64,000 bases of DNA, taken from NCBI GenBank assembly GCA_026770705.1, contig JANJGN010000010.1, positions 90,830,001-90,894,000 on the forward strand, given 5' to 3'. The notes under the pieces are model-generated. The model saw only the letters and a list, made by a program, of their open reading frames with translations. It was not told where the DNA came from and did not search any database. The position numbers were made by a program, and so were the translations under genes. Shown piece by piece: positions 8,752 through 53,700 of the stretch. How positions within the stretch are numbered: the first letter of the stretch is position 1; every line of letters starts with the position of its first letter. The stretch comes from Isurus oxyrinchus. Its lineage: Eukaryota.

Positions 8752-8906
8752 ATAAAAGCAAAATACTGCTGTTGCTGGAAATCTAAACTAAAAACAAAAA
8801 TTGCTGGAAAAACTCAGCAGGTCCGGCAGCATCTGTGTGTGCTCTCTCTGCTCAGATACTGCCAGACCTGCTGAGTTTTCCAAGCATTTTTTGTTTTTAC
8901 ATTTCC
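8752..8906. mobile_element. Miniature inverted pair of Penelope 3' tails (hairpin)
   Basis: aaaattgctggaaaaactcagcaggtccggcagcatctg is followed by its near reverse complement cagatactgccagacctgctgagttttccaagcattttt. Same tail as the full Penelope at 34140-34225. Confidence 0.8.
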
Positions 8907-9984: not shown

Positions 9985-10058
9985 GTCCATTTCTGCAGCA
10001 TTTCTAGCATTTTCTGTTTTTATTTCAGATTTCTAGCATTCACAGTATTTTGCTTTTA
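9985..10058 (+). mobile_element. Penelope 3'-tail fragment
   Basis: atttctagcattttctgtttttatttcagatttctagcattcacagtattttgctttt resembles the tail at 34165-34225. Confidence 0.6.
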
Positions 10059-10152
10059 ATCCCTGCTAATTGTATGCCATTGTACATCAGCACAAACTAA
10101 ATAATAAATTAATTTCAGTATTTTGTGTAGTTTAATTCTGTTTTTTGTGCAG

Positions 10153-13733: not shown

Positions 13734-15480
13734 AGCTCCAATTATTTCATCCTTTATGCTCCACCCTATCATGTGGTTACTGTTAGGGAGCCTGTACACA
13801 ATTCCCACAAGTAACGTTTTGCCTTTACCATTTCTCATCTCTACTCAAACCATTTCCACATCCTGGTTTCCTGAACTTAGGTCATCCCTCTCTATTGTGC
13901 TAATACCATCATTAAATAACAGAGCCACCCCTCCATCTTTTCCCACCTCCTCGCATCTTGTTCTTCTTAAATATCTCATAACCTTCAATATTCATGTCCC
14001 AATCCATGTCCTCCTGCAGCTGTGTCTCTGTAATGGCTATCAAATCGTAATTTATTTATTTCCATGTGCGCTCTCAGTTTACCTGTTTTGTTTTGAATGC
14101 TACATGAATTCAGATACAGAACTTGTAGTTTTATCTTTTTATTCTTTTTATAACCTCTAGTTTCATCTGTTGATTTACTATTAGATATGTACTCTCTATC
14201 TCTTCCTGTCACTGTCTGTTTTTCATTTCCCCTATTAATACCTTTCTCTTTTGCCTTGTCTCTACTCTTTGATTTACCACATCTTCCCAAATTTGATCCC
14301 TTGCCCCCACTATTTAGTTTAAAACCCTCACTATTTTCCTAGTTATGCAGCTTGCAAGAACTCCTGTCCCAGCACGGTTTGGGTGTAGACCGTTCTACTT
14401 TCCCTAGTATTGGTGGCAAAGCCCCACAAACCAGAACCCACTTCTCCCACACCCGTCTTTCAGCCACACATTCATCTCCCTAATCGGATTTGTCCTATGC
14501 CAATTTGCATGTGTTCTAGGTAATAATCCAGAGATTATGACCTTTGAGGATCTGCTTCTAAATTTGGTGCCTAGCTCCTCATACTGACTATGGAGTAACT
14601 CCTTCTTTGCCCAGTCTATGTCATTGGTACCTACATAGACCGTGACGACTGGGTCTTCCCCCTCCCACTGCAAGGTCCTCTCCAGCCTTGAGCAGATGTC
14701 CTGAACCCTGGCAATGGGCAAGCAACACAGCCACCTGGACTCTCGCTCTTTGCTGCAGAAAATGGTGTTAATCCCTCTGACTATACTATTCCCTACTACC
14801 ACTAGATTCCTTGGAATTCCCCCTGCTTGAATGGCTTCCTGCACCACGGTGTCATGGCCAGTTAGTTCATCCACCTTTCCACTCCCACTCTCATCCAAAC
14901 AAGCCAAAAGAAACCTGAAACCTGTTGGACAATTGCAGAGGCTCACACTTCCACACTCCTGCCCTCTGCCTCACTCACAGTCACACCCTCCTGCCCCTGA
15001 CTACTGACCAACTCAGAAGACCCTTCCCTGAGAGGTGTGACTGCCTCCCGGTACAAAGAATCCAGGTAACTTTCCCCCTTCCTGATGTGTTGCAGTGTTT
15101 GTAGTTCAGCCTCCAGCTCATAAACTCTGAGCTGAAGCTGCTCAAACTTCAAACACTTACTGCAGATGTGTTTACCCTGGATCAAACTGGCAACCAGAAG
15201 CTATGACATATCACCTGTCAACATCCTTGATGTGCTCTAATTAACTATTTAATTATTTTATTCAATTATATATTTTACTTTTTTTTTATATTTTATTCAT
15301 CTTACCACCAGCTGCTGGACTATTTTGAACCTTAGAAATAGAATAAACCTCAGTCACTTACAGATAGTCACCAAATAATTAGCTTCTTCTCCTGTAGCAG
15401 AGTATGACCACTTCCTGAAGGCGGAGAAAGTTAGAAAGCAGAAAGCAAAAGAGCGCCTCTTTACTTTCCTTCCTTAACTC
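13734..15480 (-). mobile_element. CR1 LINE 5' part: ORF1 (Cys knuckle, coiled coil, SGNH-esterase-like) and start of ORF2 endonuclease
   Basis: CSKC..LQLRVYELEAELQTL (14943-15185), VVVGNSIVRG..CLP.ARVQD..VGTND (14404-14946), LQVLYLNSCSIQNK (13985-14290). Frameshifted. Confidence 0.88.
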
Positions 15481-15600: not shown

Positions 15601-15746
15601 ACGGAGAGAACCCTTCTGTTGACAGGTCATTCAGACTCTAAACATTAACTGTGCACCTCCCCATGGATGCTGCCAGGCCTGCTGAGTTTTTCCAGGTATT
15701 TTTGTTTCTGTTTTGGATTTCCAGCATCTGCAGTTTTTTGCTTTTA
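15601..15746 (+). mobile_element. Mini-Penelope insertion with degenerate hammerhead
   Basis: 12-bp direct repeat tcccaaatatac at 15589-15600 and 15747-15758. Contains ctgttgacaggtcattcagactctaaacattaact plus the Penelope tail. Confidence 0.8.
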
Positions 15747-15879
15747 TCCCAAATATACTCACTCAGTTTCAGTCTCACTCCAGCTGACATCTCCACTCAC
15801 TGAATGACTCCTGGCATTTTACATCCTGTCCCTGCCGTGATGGGGCTGTAAAATTTCACCCTTACTCTCTGTCTCCCTC

Positions 15880-23950: not shown

Positions 23951-25181
23951 TGAGAAAGAGACAAGTGTGAGCATTTGTCTCCAAGGGTTCTCTTTGTGTC
24001 AATGGCTCATCAGTGAATGTGGGTTCAAGGGCTTTGTCCCTGTGTCGAGAGTACTCCACTCTGAAATAACCAATGCAGCATGCGTAGCAAAGTTCCCCTC
24101 CAGCCCACCACCACCCCCAAAACATTACAAACTGCTATGACATTGCTTTGGCCAGCCAGTTGGATGTACTGCTTTCAGCTCAGAGACCGGGAGCCTCATT
24201 CACTGCACTCTCAATACTACACCCTGTGTAGTAACTGTTCATTCCAGAAATGAGATTATTTGAGGGGGGCCTGATGCTTCTCTTCAGTGAACTATCCTGC
24301 ACCAACTTTCTATACAGGCTTCTGGAGCTTATCCATTTGCCCAATTGCTACGGAGTTCGTTATTACTCTGGGGAGTTACCACACTGCGAACAAGGGGTTA
24401 AAACAAGGAGATCAATTAGTGCCACTTTGTGGGATTCGTCTCAAATGAATGGGCATTAATGCTTCACTTTCCTGATTCCCTGCATTGTCAGTGAAAGGTT
24501 CCTAGCATGTCTCAGCTATGCCTCTCCCCCCATTTGGAAATGCACAGTCCAGTTGTGTGCCAATGTAATCAGCCCACCACCTCCTCCCCACCCTCCACCC
24601 AGTGCATGCATCAGCCCTCCATTCCACCCGCAGAGCCCACAGCAGAGCTTCTCCTCGTTTAAATTTGTACTGCACCTTCACTGCAGGTTGGAAGCTGATG
24701 GCGCAGAACTCTAACTTCCAGACCAGATTTGACCATCCCTGTGTGAGTATGGAAACCCCTCCCATTGTCCCTGAGGAACTTCATGTTCAGGTTTCTCTCC
24801 CTCATAGATGGCCCTCTGTGTTCCCTGATCTTGTTGTGCTTCTATTGCATGTAAGTTTGTTAGCCCCTGAACATTTTGAAGTGGATTTGCCTATGGCCCA
24901 TGTGGACCTCACCCATCTCCATTTTGAGGCCACTTACGCTGTTCAACATAAACCTCGCGCCTGCCCCACCCCTGCACACTCCTCCCCAGTCATGTGCCTG
25001 AGTGCAACCTTCCCCACTTGTAACCCTCGTAAGGCCTACCCCTGCAGCCCTTTCTCCTGTCTGACGCCACTTGCCCTCCTTCCCCAGTACAGGCCCCTTC
25101 CCATGCCTAAGGCCGGCTCCCCCCTTCCCCAGCGCAGCCCTAACCCTGCAGCCCATTAAAACCCACCCTACCATACTGCTG

Positions 25182-25286
25182 CAACAAAAACAGAAAATTC
25201 TGGAAAAACGCAGCAGATCTAACAGCATCTTTGGAGAGAGAATCAGAGTTAACATTTTGAGTCCTTGTGACCCTTCTTCAGTTTCC
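25182..25286 (-). mobile_element. Mini-Penelope insertion with hammerhead remnant, nested in the Harbinger
   Basis: Flanking repeat accatactgctg (25170-25181) / accttactgctg (25287-25298). Minus strand reads ctgaagaagggtcacaaggactcaaaatgttaact. Confidence 0.75.
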
Positions 25287-25821: not shown

Positions 25822-25996
25822 ATGAAAAGAGGAAATGCTGGAAATACTCAGCAGGCCTTGCAGCATCTGCGGAGAGAAAAATAGAGTTAATATTTCATTT
25901 TAAGGATCCTCTCTCTCCACAGGTACTGCCAGATCTGCTGAGGATTTTCAGCACATGGTTTTATTTTTGATTTACACTTCCACAGTATTTTGCTTT
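25822..25996. mobile_element. Miniature inverted pair of Penelope 3' tails
   Basis: aaatgctggaaatactcagcagg..gcagcatctgcggagaga then tctctccacaggtactgccagatctgctgaggattttcagca. Flanking repeat tgttcaaata(ca/tg)ga at 25808 and 25997. Confidence 0.78.
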
Positions 25997-27785: not shown

Positions 27786-28392
27786 ATGTTTATAACCCAG
27801 AAGAAATGTCTGAGTGCATAAGTCCGAAATCTGAATTTGGTGCTGTGTATGATTGTCATAACTTTTGGCTCCCAATCTCAGTGCTCTGATGCACCACATT
27901 ACACCATGGATGTGAGGAGGGTGGCTATGATAATTATTTTCATATAGGTTCATGCAATTTTTCATTTTCTAAGCATCTGACTCCAACATAGTCACAAGTG
28001 AGCAGCAGGAAGCTTGTGCCCCTATGCAGTTTGAAAGAATAAAAAGTGATGGGAAGTGCGTGGGGATTGGGTCGAGGCACAATTTTTGCTCCTTCGTTGT
28101 GAGGTAATGATGATATCATTTAATATACAATGACTGTGCAATTGACTAAAGAACAATGTTATTAAATTGATCTTGCAAAATTTCTGTAACCAGAAATATG
28201 TTGCATCATAACTTTAGGGTCTAGAGTCCTTGATGGCAGTAGTGGCAAGGCTGAATGGTTAAGATGGAAGTGACAGGCACTCAGCAGAACTAATGTGACT
28301 GCTACATAACAAAATGTCTTATGACTGAGGTTCTATCTTTAATAAAATGCAGTATATTCCTACTGTAATATGCAGTGCTTATTCTGTTGCAG

Positions 28393-28551
28393 GATTGTGT
28401 GGTAATTTCAATGGTGATCCTAAGAATGACTTCAGAAGTAGTATGGGAATATTGGAACACGCTGCTGCACATTTTGTGAATTCCTGGCAGGTTGATTACC
28501 ACTGTAAACCTGCTATTAATAAACAGCCATGCAAATCTGCCATGTCAAACT
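28393..28551 (+). CDS. MUC6: Mucin exon E: GLCGNFNGDPKNDFRSSMGILEHAAAHFVNSWQVDYHCKPAINKQPCKSAMSN (end of VWD)
   Basis: Canonical GLCGNFNGD..ND VWD motif. gttgcAG acceptor, GTaagt donor, 159 nt, phase 1-1. Confidence 0.93.
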
Positions 28552-28738
28552 GTAAGTACGTTTTACAAATATGCATCCTGTTCTAAATTATACCTTGAAT
28601 TGGTTTCATGCTATGCATGGAGCCAAGTGGGCAATATCTAAATCCCTGGTTTTTAAGGGCTAGGTGGACCAGACAAATGGGATGAAAGTCTCCCTGGAAA
28701 AACTCAGCAGGTCTGGCAGCATCGGCGGAGAAGAAAAG

Positions 28739-28777
28739 AGTTGACGTTTCGAGTCCTCATGACCCTTCAGCAGAACT
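28739..28777 (-). ncRNA. Minimal type-I hammerhead ribozyme motif (variant core) in Penelope 3' end
   Basis: Reverse complement is agtt-ctgctga-a-gggtc-atgag-gactc-gaaa-cgtc-aact. Confidence 0.65.
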
Positions 28778-29159
28778 GGGTGAATCCAAGGAGAGGGGTG
28801 AAATATAAGCTGGTTTAAGGTGTGGGGGCGGGGAGTGGTTGGGTGGGGGGAGAGAAGTGGAGGGGCGTGGTGTGGTTGTAGAGACAAGCAAGCAGTGATA
28901 GGAGCAGTTAATCAAAAGATGTCACAGACAAAAGAACAAAAGAACACAGGTGTTGAAGTTGGTGATATTATCTAAACGAATGTGCTAATTAAGAATGGAT
29001 GGTAGGTCACTCAAGGTATAGCTCTAGTGGGGATGGGGGGTCATAAAAGATTTAAAGATAATGGAAATAGGTGGGAAAAGAAAAATCTATATAAATTATT
29101 GGAAAAAAACAAAAGGAAGGGGGAAGAAACAAAAAGGGGGTGGGGATGGAGGAGGGAGT

Positions 29160-31241
29160 CCAAGATCTAAAGTTGTTGAATTCAGCATTCAATCCGGAAG
29201 GCTGTAAAGTGCCTAGTCGGAAGATGAGGTGCTGTTCCTCCAGTTTGCATTGGGCTTCACTGGAAAATGCAGCAAGCCAAGGACAGACAAGTGGGCAAGA
29301 GAGCAGGGTGGAGTGTTAAAATGGCAAGCGACAGGGAGGTTTGGGTCATTCTTGCAGACAGACCGCAGGTGTTCTGCAAAGCGGTCGCCCAGTTTACGTT
29401 TGGTCTCTCCAGTGTAGAGGAGACCGCATTGGGTGCAACGAATGCAGTAGACTAAGTTGGGGGAAATGCAAATGAAATGCTGCTTCACTTGAAAGGAGTG
29501 TTTGAGCCCTTGGACGGTGAGGAGAGAGGAAGTGAAGGGGCAGGTGTTGCATCTTTTGCGTGGGCATGGGTGGAGTGTTAAAATGGCAAGCGACAGGGAG
29601 GTTTGGGTCATTCTTGCAGACAGACCGCAGGTGTTCTGCAAAGCGATCGCCCAGTTTACGTTTGGTCTCTCCAATGTTGAGGAGACCGCATTGGGTGCAA
29701 CGAATGCAGTAGACTAAGTTGGGGGAAATGCAAGTGAAATGCTGCTTCACTTGAAAGGAGTGTTTGAGCCCTTGGACGGTGAGGAGAGAGGAAGTGAAGG
29801 GGCAGGTGTTGCATCTTTTGCGTGGGCATGGGAAGGTGCCATAGGTGGGGGTTGAGAAGTAGGGGGTGATGGAGGAGTGGACCAGGGTGTCCCGGAGGGA
29901 GCGATCCCTACGGAATGCCGATGGGGGGGGTGAAGGGAAGATGTGTTTGGTGGTGGTATCATGCTGGAGTTGGCGGAAATGGCGGAGGATGATCCTTTGA
30001 ATGCGGAGGCTGGTGGGGTGATAAGTGAGGACAAGGGGGACCCTATCATGTTTCTGGGAGGGAGGAGAAGGCGTGAGGGAGGATGTGCGGGAGATGGGCC
30101 GGACACGGTTGAGGGCCCTGTCAACGACCGTGGATGGAAAACCTCAGTTAAGGAAGAAGGAGGACATGTCAGAGGAACTGTTTTTGAAGGTAGCATCATC
30201 AGAACAGATGCGACGGAGGCGAAGGAACTGAGAGAATGGGATGGAATCCTTACAGGAGCGGGGTGTGAGGAGCTGTAATCGAGGTAGCTGTGGGAGTTGG
30301 TAGGCTTGTAATGGATATTGGTGGACAGTCTATCATCAGAGATTGAGACAGAGAGGTCAAGGAAGGGAAGAAAAGTGTCAGAGATGGACCACGTGAAAAT
30401 GATAGAGGGGTGGAGATTGGAAGCAAAATTAATAAATTTTTCCAAGTCCCGACCAGAGCATGAAGCAGCACCGAAGTAATCATGTACCGGAGAAAGAGTT
30501 GTGGAAGGGGGCCGGAGTAGGACTGGAACAAGGAATTTTCCACATACCCCATAAAGAGACAGGCATAGCTGGGGCCCATGCAGTTACCGATAGCCACACC
30601 TTTTATTTGGAGGAAGTGAGAGGAGTTGAAGGAGAAATTGTTCAGTGTGAGAACAAGTTCAGCCAGACGGAGGAGAGTAGTGAAGGATGGGGATTGTTTG
30701 GGCCTCTGTTCGAGGAAGAAGCTAAGGGCCCTCAGACCATCCTGGTGGGGGATGGAGGTGTAAAGGGATTGGACGTCCATGGTGAAGAGGAAGCGGTTGG
30801 GGCCAGGGAACTGGAAATTGTTGAGGTGACGTTTGGTGTCAGAGGAATCACGGATGTAGGTGGGAAGGGACTGGACAAGGGGAGAGAGAAGGGAGTCAAG
30901 ATAACGAGAAATGAGTTCCGTGGGGCAGGAGCAAGCTGACACGATCGGTCTACCGGTACTGTTCTGTTTGTGGATTTTGGGTAGGAGTTGGAGCGGGCCG
31001 TCCGAGGTTGGGCGACTATCAGGTTGGAAGCTGTGGGAGGAAGATCTCCAGAGGAGATGAGGTCAGTGACAGTCCTGGAAACAATGGCTTGATGTTCAGT
31101 GGTGGGGTCATGGTCCAGGGAGAGGTAGGAGGAAGTGTCTGCGAGTTGATGCTCAGCCTCCGCGAGGTAGAGGTCAGTGCACCAGACAACAACAGCACCA
31201 CCCTTGTCAGCAGGTTTGATGACAATGTTGGGGTTGGACCT
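29160..31241 (-). pseudogene. Penelope RT-GIY-YIG, left arm (5'-truncated, frameshifted)
   Basis: IVIKPADKGG, FTMDVQSLYTSIPH, GVAIG..GPSYACLFM, VYCIRCTQCGLLY.GET. The YIDD motif is destroyed at ~30480. Confidence 0.92.
29306..29829. repeat. 262-bp direct tandem duplication within the left Penelope arm
   Basis: gggtggagtgttaaaatggc starts at 29306 and again at 29568. Absent from the right arm and from the copy at 41862. Confidence 0.92.
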
Positions 31242-33665
31242 GCGCCGCCAAATGAACACACTCGACCTCTCCCTCCAGCAGCACCGCCGTACCCTTTTTC
31301 AAAGCTGCGCATGCCCCCAGTTTCATTTTATTCTTCATCTCATCCGACGCCTTTACAAGAAAATTTTTCTCTTTCTCTCAAAGGCTAAGGAACGCAAGCT
31401 CCAACAACTCATGGACACCAACACCCATCTAGAATCCTCCACCCCTGCCTGCCCCTCCGTCCCCACCCCATCTTCCAATCCCAGCCCTGGCCGTGTATTC
31501 ACTATACCCCATGACCTTCCCTTCTCTGATGCTGAACGTTCAGTACTCAGCAAAGGACTTAGTTTCATACCCTTACGCCCTCATCTCAATGAATTTCGGG
31601 CTCGGCACGATGCTGAACTCTTCTTCCGCCGCCGTCGTCTCCGGGCTCACTTCTTTGGGCAGGAGTCCTCTCCCTGTTCAACGGATCCTTTTACCCACAT
31701 CCAATATTCTCCTTCCACCTGGACCCCTCCCTCTGGATTCTTACCTTCTCTTGATCTTTTCATTGAGAACTGTCAGTGCGACATTAGTCGTCTCAATTTC
31801 TCTGCTCCTCTCACCCACTCTAACCTGTCTCTCTCTGAACTTACTGCACTCCGTTCTCTCAGGTCCAACCCCAGCATTGTCATCAAACCCGCTGACAAGG
31901 GTGGTGCTGTTGTTGTCTGGCGCACTGACCTCTACCTCGCAGAGGCTGAGCGTCAACTCGCAAACACTTCCTCCTACCTCTCCCTGGACCATGACCCCAC
32001 CACTGAACATCAAGCCATTGTTTCCAGGACTGTCACTGACCTCATCTCCTCTGGAGATCTTTCCCCCACAGCTTCCAACCTGATGGCCACCCAACCTCGT
32101 ACAGCCCGCTTCTACCTCCTACCCAAAATCCACAAACAGAACGGTAGACTGATTGTGTCAGCTTGCTCCTGCCCCACACAACTCATTTCTTGCTATCTTG
32201 ACTCCCTTCTCTCTCCCCTTGTCCAGTCCCTTCCCACCTGCATCTGTGATTCCTCTGACACCAAACGTCACCTCAACAATTTCCAGTTCCCTGGTCCCAG
32301 CCGCTTCCTCTTCGCCATGGACGTCCAATCCCTCTACACATCCATCCCCCACCAGGATGGTCTGAGAGCCCTTAGCTTCTTCCTCGAACAAAGGCCCGAA
32401 CAATCCCCATCCACCACTACTCTCCTCCGTCTGGCTGAACTTGTTCTCACGCTGAACAATTTCTCCTTCAACTCCTCTCACTTCCTGCAAATAAAAGGTG
32501 TGGCTATGGGTACCCACATAGGCCCCAGCTATGCCTGCCTCTTTATGGTGTATGTGGAAAATTCCTTGTTCCAGTCCTACTCCGGCCCCCTTCCACAACT
32601 CTTTCTCCGGTACATGATTACTTCGGTGCTGCTTCATGCTCTGGTCGGGACTTGGAAAAATTTATTAATTTTGCTTCCAATCTCCACCCCTCCATCATTT
32701 TCACGTGGTCCATCTCTGACACTTCCCTTCCCTTCCTTGACCTCTCTGTCTCAATTTCTGGTGATAGACTGTCCACCAATATCCATTACAAGCCTACCAA
32801 TTCCCACAGCTACCTCAACTACAGCTCTTCACACCCCACTCCTGTAAGGATTCCATCCCATTCTCTCAGTTCCTTCACCTCCGTCGCATCTGTTCTGATG
32901 AAAAAACAGTTCCTCTGACATGTCCTCCTTCTTCCTTAACCGAGGTTTTCCACCCACTGTCGTTGACAGGGCCCTCAACCGTGTCCGGCCCATCTCCCGC
33001 GCATCTGCCCTCATGCCTTCTCCTCCCTCCCAGAAACATGATAGGGTCCCCCTTGTCCTCACTTATCACCCCACCAGCTTCTGCATTCATAGGATCATCC
33101 TCCGCCATTTCCGCCAAATCCAACATGATGCCACCATCAAACACATCTCCTCTTCACCCCCCACTATCGGCATTCCGTAGGGATCGTTCCCTCCGGGACA
33201 CCCTGGTCCACTCCTCCAACACCCCCTACTCCTCAACCCCCACCTATGGCACCTCCCCATACCCATGCAAAAGATGCAACACCTGCCCCTTCACTTCCTC
33301 TCTCCTCACCGTCCAAGGGCTCAAACACTCCTTTCAAGTGAAGCAGCATTTCACTTGCATTTCCCCCAACTTAGTCTACAGTATTCGTTGCACCCAATGC
33401 GGTCTCCTCTGCACTGTAGAGACCAAACGTAAACTGGGCGACCGCTTTGCAGAACACCTGCGGTCTGTCTGCAAGAATGACCCAAACCTCCCTGTCGTTT
33501 GCCATTTTAACACTCCACCCTGCTCTCTTGCCCACATGTCTGTCCTTGGCTTGCTGCATTGTTCCAGTGAAGCCCAACGCAAACTGGAGGAACAGCACCT
33601 CATCTTCCGACTAGGCACTTTACAGCCTTCCGGACTGAATATTGAATTCAACAACTTTAGATCTG
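31242..33665 (+). pseudogene. Penelope RT-GIY-YIG, right arm (5'-truncated, frameshifted)
   Basis: ORFs 31177-32847, 32652-32918, 32920-33180 and 32963-33775 tile the polyprotein. Same 4-bp loss in YIDD at ~32615. Confidence 0.92.
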
Positions 33666-34086
33666 AAACTCCCTCCTCCATCCCCACCCCCTTTCTGTTT
33701 CTTCCCCCTTCCTTTTGTTTTTTTCCAATAATTTATATAGATTTTTCTTTTCCCATCTATTTCCATTATTTTTAAATCATTTATGCCCCCCACACCCACT
33801 AGAGCTATACCTTGAGTGCCCTACCATCCATTCTTATTTAGCGCATTCGTTTAGATAATATTACCAACTTCAACACCTCTGTGTTCTTTTGTCTGTGACA
33901 TCTTTTGATGATCTGCTCCTATCACTGCTTGCTTGTCCCTACAACCACACCACCCCCCTCCACTTCTCTCCCCCCACCCAACCACCCCCCGCCCCCACTC
34001 CCACCCCCCCAACACCACCCCCCACCCCGCCCCCCCCCACACACCTTAAACCAGCTTATATTTCACCCCTCTCCTTGGATTCACCC

Positions 34087-34125
34087 AGTTCTGCTGAAGG
34101 GTCATGAGGACTCGAAACGTCAACT
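34087..34125 (+). ncRNA. Minimal type-I hammerhead ribozyme motif (variant core) in Penelope 3' end
   Basis: Stem I agtt/aact, core CTGCTGA, stem II gggtc/gactc, GAAA, palindromic ACGT helix III, predicted GUC cleavage after 34121. Confidence 0.65.
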
Positions 34126-34431
34126 CTTTTCTTCTTCGCCGATGCTGGCAGACCTGCTGAGTTTGTCCAGGTAATTCTGTTTTTGTTTTTGATTTCCAGC
34201 ATCCGCAGTTTTTTGTTTTTATATTTTTACATGAAAGTCCCCCTGCCTGTTGTCTGCAGGATGATAATTTTCCGAGTTTGTGCCTGGCGCACTGGCCATG
34301 CAAACCTAAAATCTTCAGGAGCATCGGAAATGCAAACTAGCCTTAAGGCTCCACTTGAAATGGATATGAGCACCAAAAACTCAATTCTTCTTGGGCATCT
34401 TTCACAGCACAAAACTGCATCTAGTCAAAGA

Positions 34432-41719: not shown

Positions 41720-41922
41720 GTGACAATATTCTTGCTTTTATTAGGACTCAGTACGGTTTTATAACTAATGGTTATAGATTAAATTAGAATGAGAACCGTA
41801 CCTTCAGCCACTGAGTGAGACAACTCCTTTAATTAGTAAGGGCAGCTGCTCATATACTTCAACAAAAACAGAATTACCTGGAAAAACTCAGTAGGTCTGG
41901 CAGCATCGGCGGAGGAGAAAAG

Positions 41923-41961
41923 AGTTGACGTTTCGAGTCCTCATGACCCTTCGACAGAACT
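41923..41961 (-). ncRNA. Minimal hammerhead ribozyme motif (core CUGUCGA)
   Basis: Reverse complement is agtt-ctgtcga-a-gggtc-atgag-gactc-gaaa-cgtc-aact. Confidence 0.65.
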
Positions 41962-42356
41962 TGATTTCGAGTCCAGGAAAGAGTTGAAATATAAGCTGGT
42001 TTAAGGTGTGTGGGGGGGGGGGGGAAAGAGAGAGAGAGAGAGACAGAGGTGCTTGTGTAGACAAACAAGCAGTGATAGAAGCAGATCATCAAAAGATGTC
42101 AGTAACAATGGTACCAAAGAACACATAGGTGTTAAAGTTAAAGTTGGTGATATTATCTAAACGAATGTGCTAATTAAGAATGGATGGTAGGGCACTCAAG
42201 GTACAGCTCTAGTGGGGGTGGGGGGAGCATAAAGGATTTTAAAATATTTAAAAATAATGGAAATAGGTGGGAAAAGAAAAATCTATAAAATTTATAGGGA
42301 AAAAAAAGGGGGAAAAAAGGGGGAAACAGAAAGGGGGTGGGGATGGGGGAGGGAGC

Positions 42357-43979
42357 TCACGACCTAAAGTTATTGAATTCAATATTCAGACCGGAAGGCT
42401 GTAAGGTGCCTAGTCGGAAGATGAGGTGTTGTTCCTCCAGTTTGCGTTGGGCTTCACTGGAACAATGCAGTAAGCCAAGGACAGACATGTGGGCAAGAGA
42501 GCAGGGTGGAGTGTTAAAATGGCAAGCCACAGGGAGGTTTGGGTCATTCTTGCGGACAGACCGCAGGTGTTCTGCAAAGCGGTCGCCCAGTTTACGTTTG
42601 GTCTCTCCAATGTAGAGGAGACCACATTGGGAGCAACGAATGCAGTAGACTAAGTTGGGTGAAATGCAAGTGAAATGCTGCTTCACTTGAAAGGAATGTT
42701 TGGGCCCTTGGACGGTGAGGAGAGAGGAAGTGAAGGGGCAGGTGTTACATCTTTTGCGTGGGCATGGGGTGGTGCCATAGGAGGGGGTTGAGGAGTAGGG
42801 GGTGATGGAGGAGTGGACCAGGGTGTCCCGGAGGGAGCGATCTCTACGGAATGCCGATAAGGGGGGTGAAGGGAAGATGTGTTTGGTGGTGGCATCATGC
42901 TGGAGTTGGCGGAAATGGCGGAGGATGATCCTTTGAATGCGGAGGCTGGTGGGGTGATAAGTGAGGACAAGGGGGACCCTATCATGTTTCTGGGAGGGAG
43001 GAGAAGGCGTGAGGGCGGATGCGCGGGAGATGGGCCGGACACGGTTGAGGGCCCTGTCAACGACCGTGGGTGGAAAACCTCGGTTAAGGAAGAAGGAGGA
43101 CATGTCAGAGGAACCGTTTTTGAAGGTAGCATCATCGGAACAGATGCGACGAAGGCGAAGGAACTGGGAGAATGGGATGGAGTCCTTACAGGAAGCGGGG
43201 TGTGAGGAGCTGTAGTCGAGGTAGCTGTGGGAGTCGGTGGGTTTGTAGTGGATATTGGTGGACAGTCTATCACCAGAGATTGAGACAGAGAGGTCAAGGA
43301 AGGGAAGGGAAGTGTCAGAGATGGACCACGTGAAAATGATGGAGGGGTGGAGATTGGAAGCAAAATTAATAAATTTTTCCAAGTCCCGACGAGAGCATGA
43401 AGCAGCACCGAAGTAATCATCGATGTACCGGAGAAAAAGTTGTGGAAGGGGGCCGGGGTAGGACTGCAACAAGGAATGTTCCACATATCCCATAAAGAGA
43501 CAGGCATAGCTGGGGCCCATGCGGGTACCCATAGCCACACCTTTTATTTGGAGAAAGTGAGAGGAGTTGAAGGAGAAATTGTTCAACGTGAGAACAAGTT
43601 CAGCCAGACGGAGGAGAGTAGTGGTGGATGGGGATTGTTCGGGCCTCTGTTCGAGGAAGAAGCTAAGGGCCCTCAGACCATCCTGGTGGGGGATGGAGGT
43701 GTAGAGGGATTGGACGTCCATGGTGAAGAGGAAGCGGTTGGAGCCAGGGAACTGGAAATTGTTGATGTGACGTAAGGTGTCAGAGGAATCACGGATGTAG
43801 GTGGGAAGGGACTGGACAAGGGGAGAGAGAAGGGAGTCAAGATAACGAGAAATGAGTTCTGTGGGGCAGGAGCAAGCTGAGACGATCGGTCTACCAGGGC
43901 AGTTCTGTTTGTGGATTTTGGGTAGGAGATAGAAGCGGGCCGTCCGAGGTTGGGCGACTATCAGGTTGGAAGCTGTGGA
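42357..43979 (-). CDS. Penelope reverse transcriptase + GIY-YIG endonuclease (N-terminally truncated, no stops)
   Basis: FYLLPKIHK..PGRPIVS, TMDVQSLYT, GVAMGTRMGP, LRYIDD, CKRCNTC-type motif, VYCIRCSQCGLLYIGET, RFAEH, PSGLN. The track's Met at 44033 is in flanking DNA. Confidence 0.93.
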   Translation of the reverse strand, partial: STASNLIVAQPRTARFYLLPKIHKQNCPGRPIVSACSCPTELISRYLDSLLSPLVQSLPTYIRDSSDTLRHINNFQFPGSNRFLFTMDVQSLYTSIPHQDGLRALSFFLEQRPEQSPSTTTLLRLAELVLTLNNFSFNSSHFLQIKGVAMGTRMGPSYACLFMGYVEHSLLQSYPGPLPQLFLRYIDDYFGAASCSRRDLEKFINFASNLHPSIIFTWSISDTSLPFLDLSVSISGDRLSTNIHYKPTDSHSYLDYSSSHPASCKDSIPFSQFLRLRRICSDDATFKNGSSDMSSFFLNRGFPPTVVDRALNRVRPISRASALTPSPPSQKHDRVPLVLTYHPTSLRIQRIILRHFRQLQHDATTKHIFPSPPLSAFRRDRSLRDTLVHSSITPYSSTPSYGTTPCPRKRCNTCPFTSSLLTVQGPKHSFQVKQHFTCISPNLVYCIRCSQCGLLYIGETKRKLGDRFAEHLRSVRKNDPNLPVACHFNTPPCSLAHMSVLGLLHCSSEAQRKLEEQHLIFRLGTLQPSGLNIEFNNFRS

Positions 43980-44350
43980 AGCTGTTGGAAGCTCATATAC
44001 TTCACTAATTGAGCATTTGCATTGCCGGTCCATCCCACTCCCAAAAATACTACCATATACCAGCCACTCAGACAGATATCAAGGCAACCCAAAACTGTGA
44101 CTCATCTGAAATTCACAACTCAGTTGGGATACAACTTGTTTGGGCATGTCAGTCTGAAATTTTTCAAATCTCCTCTATAGATTCAGGCCATGATTGTGGT
44201 GGCACATGGACCATTCTTATTCTGGTTTATTCATGTTGAAAATTTATTGCAGTGAATAGGTTCCCAAAAGCAAACCTTAAAATTATCTGTAATTAAATTT
44301 TTTTTAGAACTTGCTTGGTTTTAACTTTTGCTGTTTATATCCACCTTTAG

Positions 44351-44483: not shown

Positions 44484-44531
44484 GTAAGTATACAGCAAAA
44501 AAAAAACATTCTCACAAGGGCCCAAGCAGCT

Positions 44532-47186
44532 TGTCAGTGACAGGGGGCATCCGGAGTGAGTCATTACTGACAGGTGTCCTAGGTGTCTGTCAGCACTGAC
44601 AGATGTGCTGGGGGCATGTCAGCACCGACAGGTGTCCTGGGAGTGTGTCAGCACTGACAGGTGTCCTGGAGGTGTGTCAACAGTGACAGGTGTCCTGGGG
44701 GTGTGTCAGCGCTGACAGGTGTCCCGGGGGTGTGTCAGCGCTGACAGGTGCCCTGGGGGTGTATCAGCAATGACAGATGTCCTGGGGGTGTGTCAGCGCT
44801 GACAGGTGTCGTGGGGGTGTGTCAGCACTGACAGGGGTCCTGAGGGTGTGTCAGCACTGACAGGGGTCCTGAGGGTGTGTCAGCACTGAGGTGTCCTGGG
44901 GGTGTGTCAGCACTGACAGGTGCCGCGGGGGTATGTCAGCACTGACATGTGTCCCAGGGATGTATCAGCACTGACAGGTGTCCTGGGGTGTGTCAGCCCT
45001 GACAGGTGTCCCGGGGGTGTGTCAGCAATGACAGGTGTCCTGGGGATGTGCCAACACTGACAGATGTCCCAGAGGTGTATCAGCAATGACAGGTGTCCTG
45101 GGGGTGTGTCAGCCTTGACAGCTGTCCCGGGGTTGTGTCAGCACTGACAGGTGTCCTGGGGGTGTGTCAAGCCTGACAAGTGTCCTGGGGGTGTATCGGC
45201 CCTGACAGGTGTCCCAAGGGTTTGTCAGCAATGACAGGAATCTTGGGGGTGTGCCAGCACTGAAAGGTGTCCTGGGAGTGTGTCAACACGGACAGTTGTC
45301 CCGGGGTTGTGTCAGCAGTGACAGGTGTCCTGGGGCTGTGTCAGCACTGACAGGTGCATTGGGGGTGTGTCAACACTGACATGTGTCCTGGGGGTGGGTC
45401 AGCAATGACAGGTGTGATGCGAGTGTGTCACCCCTATCAGGTGTCCTAGGGGTGTGTCAGCAATGACAGGTGTGTTGGGGGTGTGTCAGCACTGACAGGT
45501 GTCCTGGAGGCATGTCAGTACCGATAGGGGCCACCCGGAGTGAGTCAGTGCTGACAGGTGTCCTGGGGGTGTATCAATGCTGATAGGAGGGACCTGTAGT
45601 GAGTCAATGCTGACAGGTGTCCTGGGGGTGTGTCAGCGCTGACAGATGTCCCCAGGGTGTGTCAGCACTGGCAGGTGTGCTAGGGGTGTGTCAGTATTGA
45701 CAGGTGTCCTGGAGGTGTGTCAGCGCTGACAGGTGTCCTGGGGTTGTGTCAACACTGACAGATGTCCCAGGGGTGTATCAGCACTGACAGGTGTCCTGGG
45801 GGTGTGTCAGCCCTGACAGGTGTCCCGGGGGTGTGTCAGCAATGACAGGTGTCCTGGGGGTGTGTCAGCCCTGACAGATGTCCCAGGGTTGTGTCAGCAC
45901 TGACAGTTGTCCCAGGGTTGTGTCAGCAATGACAGGTGTCCTGGGAGTGTGTCAGCAATGACAGGTGCATTGGGGGTGTGTCAGCACTGACAGGTGTCCT
46001 GGGGCTGGGTCAGCAATGACAGGTGTCCTGGGGGTGGGTCAGCAATGACAGGTGTCCTGGGGGTGTGTCAGTGCTGACAGGTGTCCTGGGGGTTTGTCAG
46101 CACTAACAGGTGTCCTGGGGGTGTGTCAGCGCTGACAGGTGTCCTGGGGGTTTGTCAGGACTGACAGATGTCCTGGGGGTGTGTCAGCGCTGACAGGTGC
46201 CGCAGGGGTATGTCAGCAATGACAGGTGTGATGCGAGTGTGTCACCCCTGTCAGGTGTCCCGGGGGTGTGTCAGCAATGACAGGTGTGTTGGGGGTGTGT
46301 CAGCACTGACCGGTGTCCTGGAGGCATGTCAGTATTGATAGGGGGCACCCGGGGTGAGTCAGTGCTGACAGGTGTCCTGGGGGTGTATCAATGCTGATAG
46401 GAGGGACCTGGAGTGAGTCAATGCTGACAGGTGTCCTGGGGGTATGTCAGCACTGACAGATATCCTGGAGGTGTGTCAGCACTGACAAATGTCCCCAGGG
46501 TGTGTCAGCACTGGCAGGTGTGCTAGGGGTGTGTCAGCATTGACAGGTGTCCTGGAGGTGTGTCAGCACTGACAGGTGTCCCGGGGGTGTGTCAGCACTG
46601 ACAGGTGTCCTGGGAGTGTGTCAGCACTGACAGGTGTCCCGGGGATGTGTCAGCACTGGCAGGTGACCTGGGAGTGTGTCAGCACTGACAGGTGTTCTGG
46701 GAGTGTGTCAGCAATGACAGGTGTCCTGGGGGTGTGTCAGCACTGACAGGTGTCCTGGGAGTGTGTCAGCACTGACAGGTGTCCTGGGATGTGTCAGCTC
46801 TGACAGGTGTCCTGAGAGTGTGTCAGCACTGACTGGTGTCCTGGGGATGTGTCAGCACTGGCAGGTGTCCTGGGGATGTGTCAGCACTGACAGGTGTCCT
46901 GAGAGTGTGTCAGCACTGACAGGTGTCCTGAGAGTGTGTCAGCACTGACAGGTGTCCTGGGGATGAGTCAGCACTGACAGGTGTCCTGAGAATGTGTCAG
47001 CACTGACAGGTGTCCTGAGAGTGTGTCAGCACTGACTGGTGTCCTGGGGATGTGTCAGCACTGACAGGTGTCCTGAGGGTGTATCAGTGCTGATCGGCAG
47101 CACACGGAGTGAATCAATACTGAAAGGTGTCCCAAAGGTGTGTCAGCACTACCAGGTACCCTGGAGTTTGTCATTGCTCTCAGATG
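44532..47186. repeat. 29-bp tandem minisatellite (GTGTGTCAGCACTGACAGGTGTCCTGGGG) with palindromic core, about 90 units
   Basis: Period counted (44701 to 44730). A last partial unit resumes at 47434-47455 after the LTR insertion. Confidence 0.97.
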
Positions 47187-47428
47187 TGTAGTGTAAGGAT
47201 CTGACACACGTAGGGATAAAATGGGATGAGTACAGTACTGCCCACATGATGCACACTCAGGGTCAGTCTAGTGTTGGGCAGAGTTGTGTATACCAGCAAG
47301 CATGGAGCAGCTGCTGCTTTGTACCCTTTATTGTATATTTTTAAATAATTCTAGGAGTGAATAAAGATTTACCTATGACTACGGAAACTTCTTCAGATCT
47401 ACTGACCTTTAACCAGCATCCTACAACA
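47187..47428 (+). mobile_element. Solo LTR (242 bp)
   Basis: TG...CA termini (tgtagtgtaagg ... cctacaaca), 5-bp TSD agatg (47182-47186, 47429-47433), internal AATAAA at ~47360. Confidence 0.7.
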
Positions 47429-47467: not shown

Positions 47468-47780
47468 TCAGCACTTGCCCAACCATTCTCCACAGGGGAG
47501 TACTTTGTACCTGTTTGGCAAAGGTCACCACACATCTTGTTGAGTCTCAATTGAATGCAGCAATGTACATCGTAACTGGAACTCTCCACTCAACATCCCT
47601 CCTATCCTCGCAAACATCACTCCCACATACATCTGCCGCCATTTGATGAAAACCCAGAAGCATCTATGCTACATCTCACTTACCACTCCATGTTAACCTG
47701 TTCAATCCACCTACTGCCTGACTTCCATATCAGTGCCTCATGTGGAGCAACCTTCCTGAGGCAAGATCTATAGACAGATA
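47468..47780 (+). mobile_element. Decayed Ingi/Vingi-like LINE RT C-terminal fragment
   Basis: AL...FSTGEYFVPVWQRSPH / LVESQLNAAMYIVTGTLHST resembles the STAEYCAPVW..S.H...VD..LN..MR.ITG.L..T motif. Confidence 0.55.
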
Positions 47781-47785
47781 TCGGA

Positions 47786-50700
47786 CTGTACCATTACACA
47801 CCAGTGTTCCCAGAGTCTGCCATTACACACAATGTTGCCGAAGTGTGCCATTATACACAGTGTTCCGAGAGTGTGTTGTTACACACAGTGTTCCTGGAGT
47901 GTGCCATTAAGCACAGGGTTCCAGGAGTGTGTCATTAAACACTGTTCCCGGAGTGTGCCTTTACGCACAGTGTTCCCGGAGTGTGCCGTTACGCACAGTG
48001 TTCGCGGAGTGTGCCGTTACGCACAGGGTTCCCGGAGTGTGCCATTAAGCACAGGGTTCCAGGAGTGTGTCATTAAACACAGTGTTCCCGGAGTGTGCCA
48101 TTACGCACAGTGTTCCCAGAGTGTGTCATTAAGCACAGTGTTCCCGGACTGTGCCATTACACACAGTGTTCCCGGAGTGAGCCATTACTCACAATGTTCC
48201 CAGAGTGTGCCATTACACACAGCATTCCCAGAGAGTGCCATTATGCACAGTGTTCTCGGAGTGTGCCATTACACACAGGGTTCCCGGAGTATGCCATTAC
48301 GCACAGTGTTCCCGGAATGTGCCATTGCGCACAGTGATCACAGACTGTGCCATTAAGCACATCGTTCCCGAAGTGTGCCATTAGGCTCAGGGTTCCCGGA
48401 GTGTGCCTTTATGCACATGGTTCCCGGAGTGTCCCATTACGCCCAGGGTTCCAGGAGTGTACCATTACGTATAGTGTTCGCGGAGTGTGCCGTTACGCAC
48501 AGGGTTCCCGGAGTGTGCCATTAAGCACAGGGTTCCAGGAGTGTGTCATTAAACACAGTGTTCCCGGAGTGTGCCATTACGCACAGTGTTCCCAGAGTGT
48601 GTCATTAAGCACAGTGTTCCCGGACTGTGCCATTACACACAGTGTTCCCGGAGTGAGCCATTATTCACAATGTTCCCAGAGTGTGCCATTACACACAGCA
48701 TTCCCAGAGAGTGCCATTATGCACAGTGTTCCCGGAGTGTGCCATTACACACAGGGTTCCCGGAGTGTGCCATTACGCACAGTGTTCCCGGAATGTGCCA
48801 TTGCGCACAGTGATCACAGACTGTGCCATTAAGCACATCGTTCCCGAAGTGTGCCATTAGGCTCAGGGTTCCCGGAGTGTGCCTTTATGCACATGGTTCC
48901 CGGAGTGTCCCATTACGCCCAGGGTTCCAGGAGTGTACCATTACGTACGGTGTTCCCGGAGTGTGTCGTTGCACATAGTGTTCTCGGAGTGAGCGATTAT
49001 GCACATTGTTCCTGGAGTGTGACATTACGCACAGTCTTCCCAGAGTGTGTCATTATGCACAGTGTTCCCAGAGTGTGTCTTATGCACAGTGTTCCTGGAG
49101 GGGGCCATTACACACAGTGTTACTGGAGTGTGCCATTACACACATGGTTCCCAGAGTGTGCCATTGCACAGTGTTCTCGGAGTGTGCCATTACAGATAGG
49201 GTTCCCGGAGTGTGTTATTACACAGTGTTCCCGGAGTGTGCCATTACGCACAGTGTTCCTGGAGTTTGCCATTACACACATTGGTCCCGGAATGAGTCAT
49301 AACGCACAGTGTTCCCAGATTGTGTCATCACGCACAGTGTTCCCGGATTGTACTATTACACACACTGTTCCTGGAGTGTGTCATTACGCAAAATGATCCC
49401 GCAATGTGTCATTACGCACTGTGATCCCGGAATGTGCCATTACGCACAGTGTTCCCAGAGTGTGTCATTACGCACAGTGTTCCTGGAGGGTGCTATTCCG
49501 TGCAGGGTTCCCGGAGTTTGCCATTACGCCCAGGGTTCCCGGAGTGTATCATTACACACAGGGTTCCCGGAGTGTGCCATTACGCAAAGTGTTTCCGGAG
49601 TGTGCCATTACCCACAGTGACCCCAGACTAGGCCATGATGGACAGTGATCCCTAAGCGTGCCATTATGCTCAGGGTTCTCGCAGGGTGCCATTTTGCACA
49701 GGGTTCCCGGAGTGTGCCCTTGCACACAGTGTTCCTGGAGTGTGCCATTATGTACAATGTTCCCGGAGTGTGCCATTACGCACTGTCTTCCTGGATTGTG
49801 CCGTTATGCACACTGTTCCCGAAGTGTGTCATTACCCACAGTGTTCCTGGATTGTAGTATCAGGCACACTGTTCCCGTAGTGTGTCATTACGCACAATGT
49901 TCCCGAGTGTGTCATTATGCACAGGGTTCCCGGAATTTACCATTACGCACAGTGTTCGCAAAGGGTGCCATTACACACAAGGTTCCCAGAGTATGTAATT
50001 ACGCATAGTGTTCCCGGACTGTGCCATAATGCACAGCGTTCCCGAAGTGTATCATTACGCACAAGGTTCCAGGAGTGTGCCATTATGCACAGTGTTCCTG
50101 GAGTGTGTCATTACGCCCAGGGTGCCTGGAATGTGCGATTATGCACAGTGTTCCCGGACTGTGCCATTAGGCACAATGTTCCCGGAGTGTATCATTACGC
50201 ATTGTGATCCCGGAGTGTGCCATTACGGACAGTTTTCCCGGAATGTGTCATTATGCACAATGTTCCCGGAGTATATCATTACGCACAGTGATCCCGAGTG
50301 TATCATTACACACAGTGTTCCCGCAGTGTGCCATTATGCGCAGGATTCCAGGAGTGTGCCATGACGCCCAAGGTTCCTGGAGTGTGCCATTACGTACAGT
50401 GTTCCTGGACTGTGCCATTACACACAGCGTTGCCGGAGCATGCCATCACACACAGTATTCCTGGAGCTAGACATTATGCGCAGGGTTCACGGCGTGTGTC
50501 ATTACGCACAGTGTTCCCGATGTGTGTCATTACACATAGTGTTCTGGGAGTAAGCCATTACACAGATTGTTCCCTGAGTGTGTTATTACGCACAGTGTTC
50601 CCAGTGTGTGCCATTACGCACAGTGTTCCTGGAGTGTTTCATTACGCAGAATGTTCCCGGAGTCTGCCAAAATGCACAGGATTCCCGGAGTGTACCATTA

Positions 50701-53700
50701 CGCACAGTGATCGCAGACTGTGCCATGACGCACAGTGTTTCCGGAGTGTGTCATTACGCACAATGTGCCCGGAGTGTGTCATTATGCACAGGGCTCACCG
50801 TCTGTGCCATTACGCACAGTGTTCCTGGAGTGTGCCATTACACACAATGTTCTCAGAGTGTGTCATTACGAAGAGTGTTCCCCAAGTGTGCCATTGCACA
50901 TAGTGTTCTGGGAGCATGCCATTACACAGATTGTTCCATGAGTGTACCATTACGCACAGTGATCGCAGACTGTGCCATGACGCACAGTGTTCCCGGAGTG
51001 TTTCATTACACAGTATGTTCCCGGAGTGACCCATTAAACACAGTGTTCCCGGGCTGTGACATTACACACAATGTTCTCAGAGTGTGTCAGTACGCACAAT
51101 GTTCCCGGAGTGTGTCATTACGCACATTGTTCCCAGAGTGTACCATTATGCACAGTGTTCCCGGACTGTGTCATTATACACAGAATTCCCGGATTGTACT
51201 ATTACACACACTGTTCCTGGAGTGTGTCATTACGCAAAATGATCCCGCAATGTGTCATTACGCACTGTGATCCCGGAATGTGCCATTACGCACAGTGTTC
51301 CCAGAGTGTGTCATTACGCACAGTGTTCCTGGAGGGTGCTATTCCGTGCAGGGTTCCCGGAGTTTGCCATTACGCCCAGGGTTCCCGGAGTGTATCATTA
51401 CACACAGGGTTCCAGGAGTGTGCCATTACGCAAAGTGTTCCCGGAGTGTGCCATTACCCACAGTGACCCCAGACTAGGCCATGATGGACAGTGATCCCTA
51501 AGCGTGCCATTATGCTCAGGGTTCTCGCAGGGTGCCATTTTGCACAGGGTTCCCGGAGTGTGCCCTTGCACACAGTGTTCCTGGAGTGTGCCATTATGCA
51601 CACTGTTCCCGGAGTGTGTCATTACCCACAGTGTTCCCGGATTGTACTATCAGGCACACTGTTCCCGTAGTGTGTCATTACGCACAATGTTCCCGAGTGT
51701 GTCATTATGCACAGGGTTCCCGGAATTTACCATTACGCACAGTGTTCGCAAAGGGTGCCATTACACACAAGGTTCCCAGAGTATGTAATTACGCATAGTG
51801 TTCCCGGACTGTGCCATAACGCACAGCGTTCCCGAAGTGTATCATTACGCACAAGGTTCCAGGAGTGTGCCATTATGCACAGTGTTCCTGGAGTGTGTCA
51901 TTACGCCCAGGGTGCCTGGAATGTGCGATTATGCACAGTGTTCCCGGACTGTGCCATTAGGCACAATGTTCCCGGAGTGTATCATTACGCATTGTGATCC
52001 CGGAGTGTGCCATTACGGACAGTTTTCCCGGAATGTGTCATTATGCACAATGTTCCCGGAGTATATCATTACGCACAGTGATCCCGAGTGTATCATTACA
52101 CACAGTGTTCCCGCAGTGTGCCATTATGCGCAGGATTCCAGGAGTGTGCCATGACGCCCAAGGTTCCTGGAGTGTGCCATTACGTACAGTGTTCCTGGAC
52201 TGTGCCATTACACACAGCGTTGCCGGAGCATGCCATCACACACAGTATTCCTGGAGCTAGACATTATGCGCAGGGTTCACGGCGTGTGTCATTACGCACA
52301 GTGTTCCCGATGTGTGTCATTACACATAGTGTTCTGGGAGTAAGCCATTACACAGATTGTTCCCTGAGTGTGTTATTACGCACAGTGTTCCCAGTGTGTG
52401 CCATTACGCACAGTGTTCCTGGAGTGTTTCATTACGCAGAATGTTCCCGGAGTCTGCCAAAATGCACAGGATTCCCGGAGCGTACCATTACGCACAGTGA
52501 TCGCAGACTGTGCCATGACGCACAGTGTTTCCGGAGTGTGTCATTACGCACAATGTGCCCGGAGTGTGTCATTATGCACAGGGCTCACCGTCTGTGCCAT
52601 TACGCACAGTGTTCCTGGAGTGTGCCATTACACACAATGTTCTCAGAGTGTGTATTTACGAAGAGTGTTCCCCAAGTGTGCCATTGCACATAGTGTTCTG
52701 GGAGCATGCCATTACACAGATTGTTCCATGAGTGTGTCATTACGCACAGTGTTCCCGGAGTGTTTCATTACGCAGTATGTTCCCGGAGTGACCCATTAAA
52801 CACAGTGTTCCCGGGCTGTGACATTACACACAATGTTCTCAGAGTGTGATATTACGCACAATGTTCCCGGAGTGAGTCATTATGCACAGGGTTCACAGAA
52901 TGTGCCATTACGCACAGTGTTCCTGGACCGTACCATTATGCACAGTGTTCTCAGAGTGTGACATTACACACAGGGTTCCCATAGTGCGTCATTACACACA
53001 GTGTTCCCGGAGGGTGTCTTTACGCACAGTGTCCCCGATGTGTGTCATTTCGCACAGTGTTCCCAGAGTGTATCATTACGCACAGTGTTCCCAGAGTGAG
53101 CCATTTCACACTGTGTTCCCGGAGTGTACCATTACACACAATGTTCCCAGAGTGTGTCATTATGCACAGTGTTCCCAGAGTGTGTCATTATGCACAGGGT
53201 TCCCAGATTGTGTCATTACGCCCAGGGTTCCCGGTGTGTGCCATTACACACACAGTCGCCAGAGTCTGTCATTACGTACAGTGTTCCCGGTGTGTGTCAG
53301 TGCGCACAATCTTCCCGGAATGTGCCATTATACACAGTGTTCATGGAGCATGCCATTATGCGCAGAGTTCCCGGAGTATGCAAATTACGCACAGGGTTTC
53401 CGGAGTGTGCCATGAGGCACATTGTTCCCGGAGTATGTCATTACGCATAGGGCTCCCAGACTGTGCCATTACACAGAATGTTCCTGGAGTGTGCCATTAC
53501 ACACAGGGTTCCCAGAGTGTGTCATTAGGCACAGTATTCCCAGTGTGTGTCATTCGGCACACTATTCCCGGAGTGTGCTATTACGCACAGTGTTCCCTGA
53601 GAGTGCCATTACTACTGGAGTGCCCATTACACACAGTGTTCCCGGAGTGTGCCATTAAGGACAATGTTCCCAGAGTGTGTCATTAAGCACATCGTTCCCG

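Follow-up and report, generated by a model that had tools for sequence, protein, structure and literature searches.

Inverted-repeat insertions of endonuclease-bearing Penelope-like elements (PLEs) are described for Pen2a_Av and Pen2_Av of the rotifer Adineta vaga (in the excerpts consulted of PMC3846280, with a scheme in those of PMC8557442), while in vitro work on an Anolis PLE found that both target strands are nicked and extended, that two start sites bracket the tail, and that a dimer is predicted (PMC11167929). Here we analyzed a PLE palindrome of Isurus oxyrinchus at 28682-34245 of a 64,000-nucleotide stretch, hereafter the window, taken from contig JANJGN010000010.1 of assembly GCA_026770705.1 (positions 90,830,001 to 90,894,000). 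The evidence gives good support to a single insertion event in which both strands of the cut primed synthesis. Our overall reading, which we hold to be slightly on the probable side of even, is that of a routine twin-primed head-to-head insertion from one source locus, with the defects common to both arms spread later by short-tract gene conversion. The insertion architecture (inverted copy, one-sided tail, single duplication) is already published. We found no paper making the points of PLE twin priming or PLE arm conversion in a literature search that did not extend to older subscription reviews and supplements, and the excerpts consulted of 10.64898/2026.07.22.740005 and PMC9977147 contained nothing on inverted PLE insertions.

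Self-comparison of the window resolved a head-to-head pair of outward-facing arms, which overlap over ~2.3 kb (right-arm bases 31860-34171) and are enclosed together by one 15-bp target duplication with 1 mismatch. The features of the palindrome, and of the copy with which it was compared, are as follows.

28682..28696 (+): target duplication, left copy; its last 4 bases, cctg (28693-28696), are common to the left target end and the element
28693..31242 (-): left arm, 5'-truncated and untailed
28739..28777 (-): minimal type I hammerhead-like motif, recognized from sequence, with core CUGCUGA, an extra A and an ACGU helix III
29306..29829 (-): tandem duplication of 262 bp covering the endonuclease region of the left arm
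30478..30485 (-): 4-bp deletion in the reverse transcriptase (RT) YIDD motif, left arm
31241..31243 (no strand): central head-to-head junction, 2-bp overlap
31243..31859 (+): unpaired spacer, the 5' part of the right arm
31243..34222 (+): right arm, a 5'-truncated RT-linker-GIY-YIG copy with a full 3' tail, broken by 4-, 1- and 10-bp deletions
32263..32272 (+): SDTKRHL cluster common to both arms
32612..32618 (+): 4-bp YIDD deletion, right arm, inside a 143-bp run identical between the arms
34087..34125 (+): minimal hammerhead-like motif of the right arm, predicted from its letters and the family motif census
34223..34230 (+): 8 extra T-rich bases between the family tailed end and the duplication, possibly slippage
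34231..34245 (+): target duplication, right copy; this junction also occurs in a contig of a second species
41861..43981 (-): independent, younger 5'-truncated copy with an open frame and its own target duplication of ~13 bp (comparison copy)

This palindromic shape is a main, routine insertion form of the family, which is very abundant with over 15,000 copies, and the locus itself is ordinary. We fetched 120 loci of ~9 kb, of which 38 were picked as already head-to-head-looking and 82 came from the top of the match listing for one contig, once pairs already seen had been removed. The 82 loci comprised 30 complete head-to-head insertions, 14 more with a head-to-head junction and 38 other forms, so that 30/82 is a lower bound for the share of complete head-to-head insertions. 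All non-edge clusters together with this locus gave 76 complete head-to-head insertions. A single target duplication, called at a score of at least 9, was present in 57 of these 76, a score reached by none of 76 mismatched flank pairs and by 16 of 47 single-orientation copies, and its length was 14 bp in 27 and 15 bp in 14 of the 57. Exactly one arm was tailed in 74 of the 76 palindromes, where about half would be expected under independence. The untailed arm ended ~35 nt before the tailed site, with the untailed ends sharply clustered within one narrow interval, and the one-sided tail matched the 30-40-bp tail of PLEs. Of 52 simple palindromes whose arms differ in length, 23 carried the tail on the longer arm and 29 on the shorter. 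The original prediction, made from the window alone, had described two overlapping outward copies within a single duplication, joined on the left through cctg, and had suggested counting such insertions; the description is confirmed here, the single duplication supports its proposal of one event, and the one-tail rule, with a tail independent of arm length, supports its proposal that both cut strands primed.

Many head-to-head stubs of 90-250 bp were also observed, with the same one-tail rule and duplications of 12-16 bp (L098:8317-8510, L101:2277-2369, L123:1794-2001, L152:1164-1410, L161:6000-6240, and others), and at the stub contig joints the inner ends cluster at the hammerhead 5' side. 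The window itself holds an old 150-bp mini-palindrome at 8752-8899, composed of two unequally long 3' ends from a related element, whose hairpin gave a chance Rfam match, and short old 3' stubs of related elements at 15614-15747, 25179-25276, 10001-10061 and 25838-25896.

A single duplication with a 3' end on each side would imply a staggered double nick of 14-15 nt leaving 3' overhangs, both of which were extended. One primer would start at the tailed site and the other ~35 nt upstream; at this locus the second primer may have started ~50 nt upstream, annealed through cctg. The left untailed end indeed lies ~16 nt short of the usual family untailed end, and 6 of the 76 palindromes are as short or nearly so. 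Both complementary DNAs (cDNAs) would then stop early and be joined 5' to 5' over 2 bp. After insertion the arms would have decayed by ~2% each, and short conversion tracts would have carried about a tenth of the changes, likely with the YIDD deletion among them, across to the other arm. Mismatches at diagnostic sites numbered 10/268 within 11 young palindromes vs 709/3424 between loci, and 101/594 within 27 older palindromes (6 loci above 20%) vs 5386/17653 between. Arms of the same sub-lineage favor RNA from one source locus, and one RNA used twice, a tandem RNA, or two RNAs of that locus would all fit. A broader account, to which we give somewhat less than even weight, takes head-to-head insertion as the normal PLE outcome and adds later short-tract conversion among palindromes and neighbors as far as ~0.45 Mb away. 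Under that account a dimeric RT-endonuclease would cut the strands 14 nt apart, its halves would begin synthesis from a single RNA at two fixed positions separated by 35 nt, and the trailing half would displace the first cDNA, accounting for the one-sided tail; the conversion level should be measurable across tens of thousands of copies.

Alignment confirmed that the 4-bp YIDD deletion (30480, 32615), a 1-bp deletion near 32842 and the SDTKRHL reading are present in both arms and absent from the comparison copy at 41861-43981, as originally claimed. We found no third copy with the linked lesions in pattern searches of the assembly. The intact YIDD 29-mer has 15,451 exact genome matches, while the deleted pattern has 2, namely the two arms; a looser pattern added 4 copies on other contigs, all lacking the other lesions, which shows that the YIDD deletion recurs independently. 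SDTKRHL had 2 genome matches, both in these arms, and the 1-bp deletion had 10, with the 8 outside the arms lacking a linked change 9 bp away. None of the 6 carriers fetched, out of 47 other copies carrying the shared change at 32560, had the lesion set. These searches therefore point to no source or sibling in this assembly. The multi-base shared changes of two other palindromes were likewise found only in their own arms (2/2 tested), so that the source was missing in 3/3 palindromes tested, and the several own-flank insertions with linked lesions that define a non-autonomous, trans-mobilized subfamily were not found. A second copy of the central junction was absent from the best 40 of 1326 candidates; a pre-formed palindromic master was rejected, as the sole other spanning match among these 40 has different breakpoints.

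One of the changes was observed elsewhere. The TT-to-AA double change (32263-64) occurred in 4 of 65 matches, comprising both arms and two copies on this contig at distances of ~120 and ~445 kb (G000:C10:90980673, L228; G000:C10:91305269, L227). These two neighbors have their own flanks, an intact YIDD and no change at 32272, and they fall in a different, older clade (support 0.98) and lack the other lesions. Segmental duplication was rejected as an explanation for them, since the breakpoints differ, one has a different target duplication, and the neighbor flanks match this window only in short 65-88% stretches. The presence of AA in unrelated neighbors suggests that a short tract moved between copies after insertion, and the change in L228 and L227 is likely to reflect ectopic gene conversion of a short tract among copies scattered along one chromosome. 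Conversion acting over 100 kb between neighbors would also be expected between arms a few kb apart.

Rare variants shared between arms were analyzed in the 45 of the 76 palindromes that offered 300 or more comparable sites, with the remaining 31 set aside. Sharing was 2.1/kb within loci vs 0.10/kb across loci and was seen in 33 of the 45; this locus, with 8 shared substitutions and 2 deletions, ranked high, not highest. Coding effects, scored on an open frame in 40 loci, gave 68 missense, 29 silent and 3 stop among the shared variants (one stop being a scoring artefact), 720 missense, 306 silent and 18 stop among the arm-private variants, and 12 missense and 44 silent among the lineage markers. 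Shared variants are thus as unselected as arm-private ones, unlike lineage markers, and a frameshift or stop common to both arms was found in 6 of 39 other palindromes. The shared variants show a CpG excess (56 vs 47 expected from genomic decay, and 0 if they were RT errors; L112 omitted). Very young head-to-tail arrays (L231 at C1:458500-468499, L232, L233) carry full 3.3-kb units with 0-7 differences over ~2,400 sites. An RT-error lineage was rejected as the source of the shared variants because of this CpG excess and the near-identity of the young tandem units. Two origins remain, an aged genomic source or mutation at the locus followed by arm-to-arm conversion.

Several observations point to conversion. 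Sharing was 0.97/kb in 14 young loci and 2.64 and 2.89/kb in two older groups of 15, shared sites lay in longer identical runs (P 0.0015, 110 events), and they were clustered (22 vs 15.4 expected, P 0.028, 110 events). At this locus, three lesions including the YIDD deletion lie inside one 143-bp identical run, the longest between the arms. We consider that the YIDD lesion was probably converted after insertion; its inheritance from an aged dead template is possible but unlikely, with the remainder left to other routes, and a mixture of inherited and converted variants is plausible. A number of results weigh against conversion as the full account. The signal is modest, with depletion of arm differences extending only ~10 bp from a shared site (ratio 0.65 at 2-5 bp, 0.81 at 6-10 bp and ~1 beyond 20 bp), and the run-length and clustering tests confined to this locus were not significant (P ~0.09 and ~0.08). 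Sharing plateaus with age and does not rise steadily, and no enrichment of shared variants was found near the center or in short-spacer palindromes. Rare variants common to independent neighboring insertions are fewer than those common to palindrome arms, at 18 over 23.3 kb with two old loci supplying 12, and none were shared in the independent-neighbor pairs of three re-fetched loci; since neighbors share less than arms, part of the sharing may be inherited. A source copy could also be real yet absent from the assembly.

The original prediction had favored an aged, RT-dead template mobilized in trans and twin-primed, with the lesions in both arms from birth and the source since lost or unassembled. 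We consider this unlikely, though it deserves serious weight. In its favor, the shared variants extend across 1.8 kb of the arms, which group as sisters on a common stem of 0.0042, and the unselected, CpG-rich character of the shared variants fits an aged genomic source equally well; the broken frames common to both arms in other palindromes and the lower sharing among independent neighbors point the same way, and trans action of a PLE open reading frame (ORF) is described in the excerpts consulted of PMC3846280. The third lesion-bearing copy, on which the prediction had itself staked this reading, was absent here and its counterparts were absent for both other palindromes tested, the 4 YIDD-deleted copies, the 8 copies with the 1-bp deletion and the 6/47 carriers all lacked the set, rare variants of very young lineages do turn up at other loci, and the neighbors carry AA without the change 8 bp away. 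Several tests favor later conversion, and the proposal gains no support in the form given. A fold-back, in which one cDNA primed itself and was copied back toward the target, which would make the left arm a DNA duplicate of the right one with its errors, appears improbable. Here the long arm is tailed with the short arm nested in it, the left end departs from the usual start site and its joint shows microhomology, and self-priming has been proposed for PLE inverted repeats (excerpts consulted of PMC3846280); across the family, a fold-back of the first cDNA would always give the spacer-bearing arm the longer 3' end and could not yield a short arm with a tail, so that the tail on the shorter arm in 29/52 cases excludes fold-back as a general mechanism, this one locus excepted, the sharp clustering of untailed ends also opposes it, and RT error, judged by the young arrays and the CpG excess, is too low for ten shared changes.

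The delivery of two RNAs from the cellular pool, one per arm, joined via hammerhead helix III with its palindromic ACGU, builds on the dimer delivery suggested in the original prediction and is in our view very improbable. The motif has the dimer-type architecture described for minimal PLE hammerheads (excerpts consulted of PMC4209133), and one of 40 pairs, L112 (C1:26137700-26146700), has head-to-head arms of different lineages at 22/30 diagnostic sites; L112 is a compound structure with no duplication and is likely a young copy inserted beside an old one. Mismatched arms were found in 0/11 young palindromes vs 38% of random cross pairs, so that arms belong to the same sub-lineage far beyond random pairing, free folding of two copies did not give a hammerhead dimer as the minimum-energy form, and in another clade catalytic hammerhead mutants were without effect on insertion in vitro (PMC11167929). 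We found no support for RNA delivery by hammerhead dimerization. To an assembly artefact, or the chance back-to-back insertion of two copies, we assign next to no probability. What favors such an explanation is that read support is confined to the outer junctions; against it, the arms have diverged by 5% and lie within a single duplication, the geometry recurs at 75 other loci, and the outer junctions are found in short-read contigs, the right one in two species. Twin priming followed by short-tract conversion between the arms remains our preferred explanation. Lesions common to both arms are not proof of a dead template, as local short-tract conversion can make them, and such conversion would bias ages drawn from arm divergence slightly downward.

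The presence of a hammerhead-like motif at both outer ends is explained by the terminal repeat, in which each arm ends. Both motifs are of minimal architecture (no loop 3, palindromic ACGU helix III), and their activity is a prediction. The canonical hammerhead core is CUGANGA. The core of these arms, CUGCUGA, has C at the canonical A6, and a census of 133 motifs in the fetched loci gave CUGUCGA in 72, CUGUUGA in 35, CUGCUGA in 11 and other cores in 15, with A6 in none. An Rfam search gave no hammerhead match and three unrelated weak matches, which we took as chance, and the hammerhead fold did not emerge when one or two motifs were folded freely as RNA, a result that is uninformative for a minimal motif. 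The claim of a hammerhead at each end stands for the presence of a minimal motif at each, and is qualified by the C at A6 and the negative Rfam search. The excerpts consulted of PMC4209133 on minimal type I hammerheads of metazoan PLEs describe motifs that are alike in having no loop 3, a palindromic helix III, an extra base between 9 and 10.1 and a short helix I; they differ at position 6, which is U in most family copies here and C in these arms.

Divergence between the arms amounts to 95 of 1926 comparable sites (~5%), which indicates that the insertion is old. The left-arm 262-bp tandem duplication, a feature absent from the original prediction, is younger than the insertion, with 4/262 differences between its copies against ~5% between arms. 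In short-read contigs of the best-matching species the outer junctions were spanned with only 22 and ~28 element-side bases, and the right one was also crossed in a second species' contig with ~35, which indicates that the insertion predates that species split; such contigs are readable at the outer junctions only, the rest being swamped by other copies, and the second species' left flank is barely covered. The palindrome lies ~130 bp downstream of one host feature:

28386..28553 (+): exon-like segment of a host gene, encoding a von Willebrand factor type D (VWD) domain (Pfam VWD E 2e-05, 25.4 bits, cut-off 22.9), followed by gt at 28554

The insertion is therefore likely to be in an intron of this gene, for which a downstream exon was not located. 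Three long degenerate tandem-repeat (satellite) arrays occupy window 1-7000 (~32-bp period), 44529-47190 and 47769-64000, and an open frame at 14404-14970 (-) presumably resembles the esterase-type ORF1 of CR1/L2 long interspersed nuclear elements.

The comparison copy, originally called intact, does have an open frame but is itself 5'-truncated (~2.1 kb). It encodes RT, a CxxC linker and GIY-YIG (RVT_1 E 3.6e-08; GIY-YIG E 5.5e-04, below the Pfam cut-off), and a natural 925-codon open frame is present in the family copy at locus L140. A single ORF with RT followed by a C-terminal GIY-YIG, as in endonuclease-bearing (EN+) PLEs, was found in the open copy, while both arms are broken. Partial tandems (pseudo-long terminal repeats) and inverted 5'-truncated copies also occur in the family, as in EN+ PLEs. 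The CX2-5CxxC linker between RT and EN reads CPRKRCNTC in the translation of the comparison copy. This linker defines Neptune and is also present in Nematis and Naiad elements (excerpts consulted of PMC8557442), and alone it therefore does not fix the Neptune clade. The linker, domain order and vertebrate-like host together mark the element as a putative Neptune-type PLE.

The closest described insertions are those of rotifer Pen2, and the excerpts consulted of PMC3846280 share with this locus a head-to-head inverted 5'-truncated copy, a 30-40-bp tail at one end only, one duplication round the whole unit, a hammerhead (here a hammerhead-like motif) in the terminal repeat, and defective derivatives of the same shape. 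The duplication is 14-15 bp here vs 8-10 bp in Pen2, the arms here are kilobases long, unlike those of Pen2, and private lesions common to both arms are not described in those excerpts. The rotifer paper explains the shape by self-priming, and the tail counts here argue against it. Poseidon element PAc of Anolis likewise has two internal start sites bracketing the tail, and its hammerhead cleavage was dispensable for insertion in vitro (PMC11167929). PAc belongs to a different clade without the CxxC linker seen here (clade definitions in the excerpts consulted of PMC8557442), its synthesis starts without homology to the cut DNA whereas the left end here has 4-bp microhomology, and the main text of PMC11167929 does not tie two-strand extension to inverted insertions. 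The one-tail rule, the sharp 14-bp duplication and the lack of a link to arm length provide a countable genomic test between self-priming and two-strand priming, the PLE integration step left open by that in vitro paper. In both L1 twin priming (excerpts consulted of PMC10191854 and 10.1101/2024.12.14.628481, which also cover fold-back) and the insertion studied here, the 3' end of the second strand primes a second cDNA and the inversion lies within one duplication. At this locus each of the two primers starts close to the 3' end, 2.3 kb of sequence is common to the two arms and no poly(A) is present. An L1 twin-priming product would have arms from one RNA with poly(A) at one end, and such arms are not known to overlap, as the original prediction also states. 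The palindrome is thus twin-priming-like, though not an L1 product.

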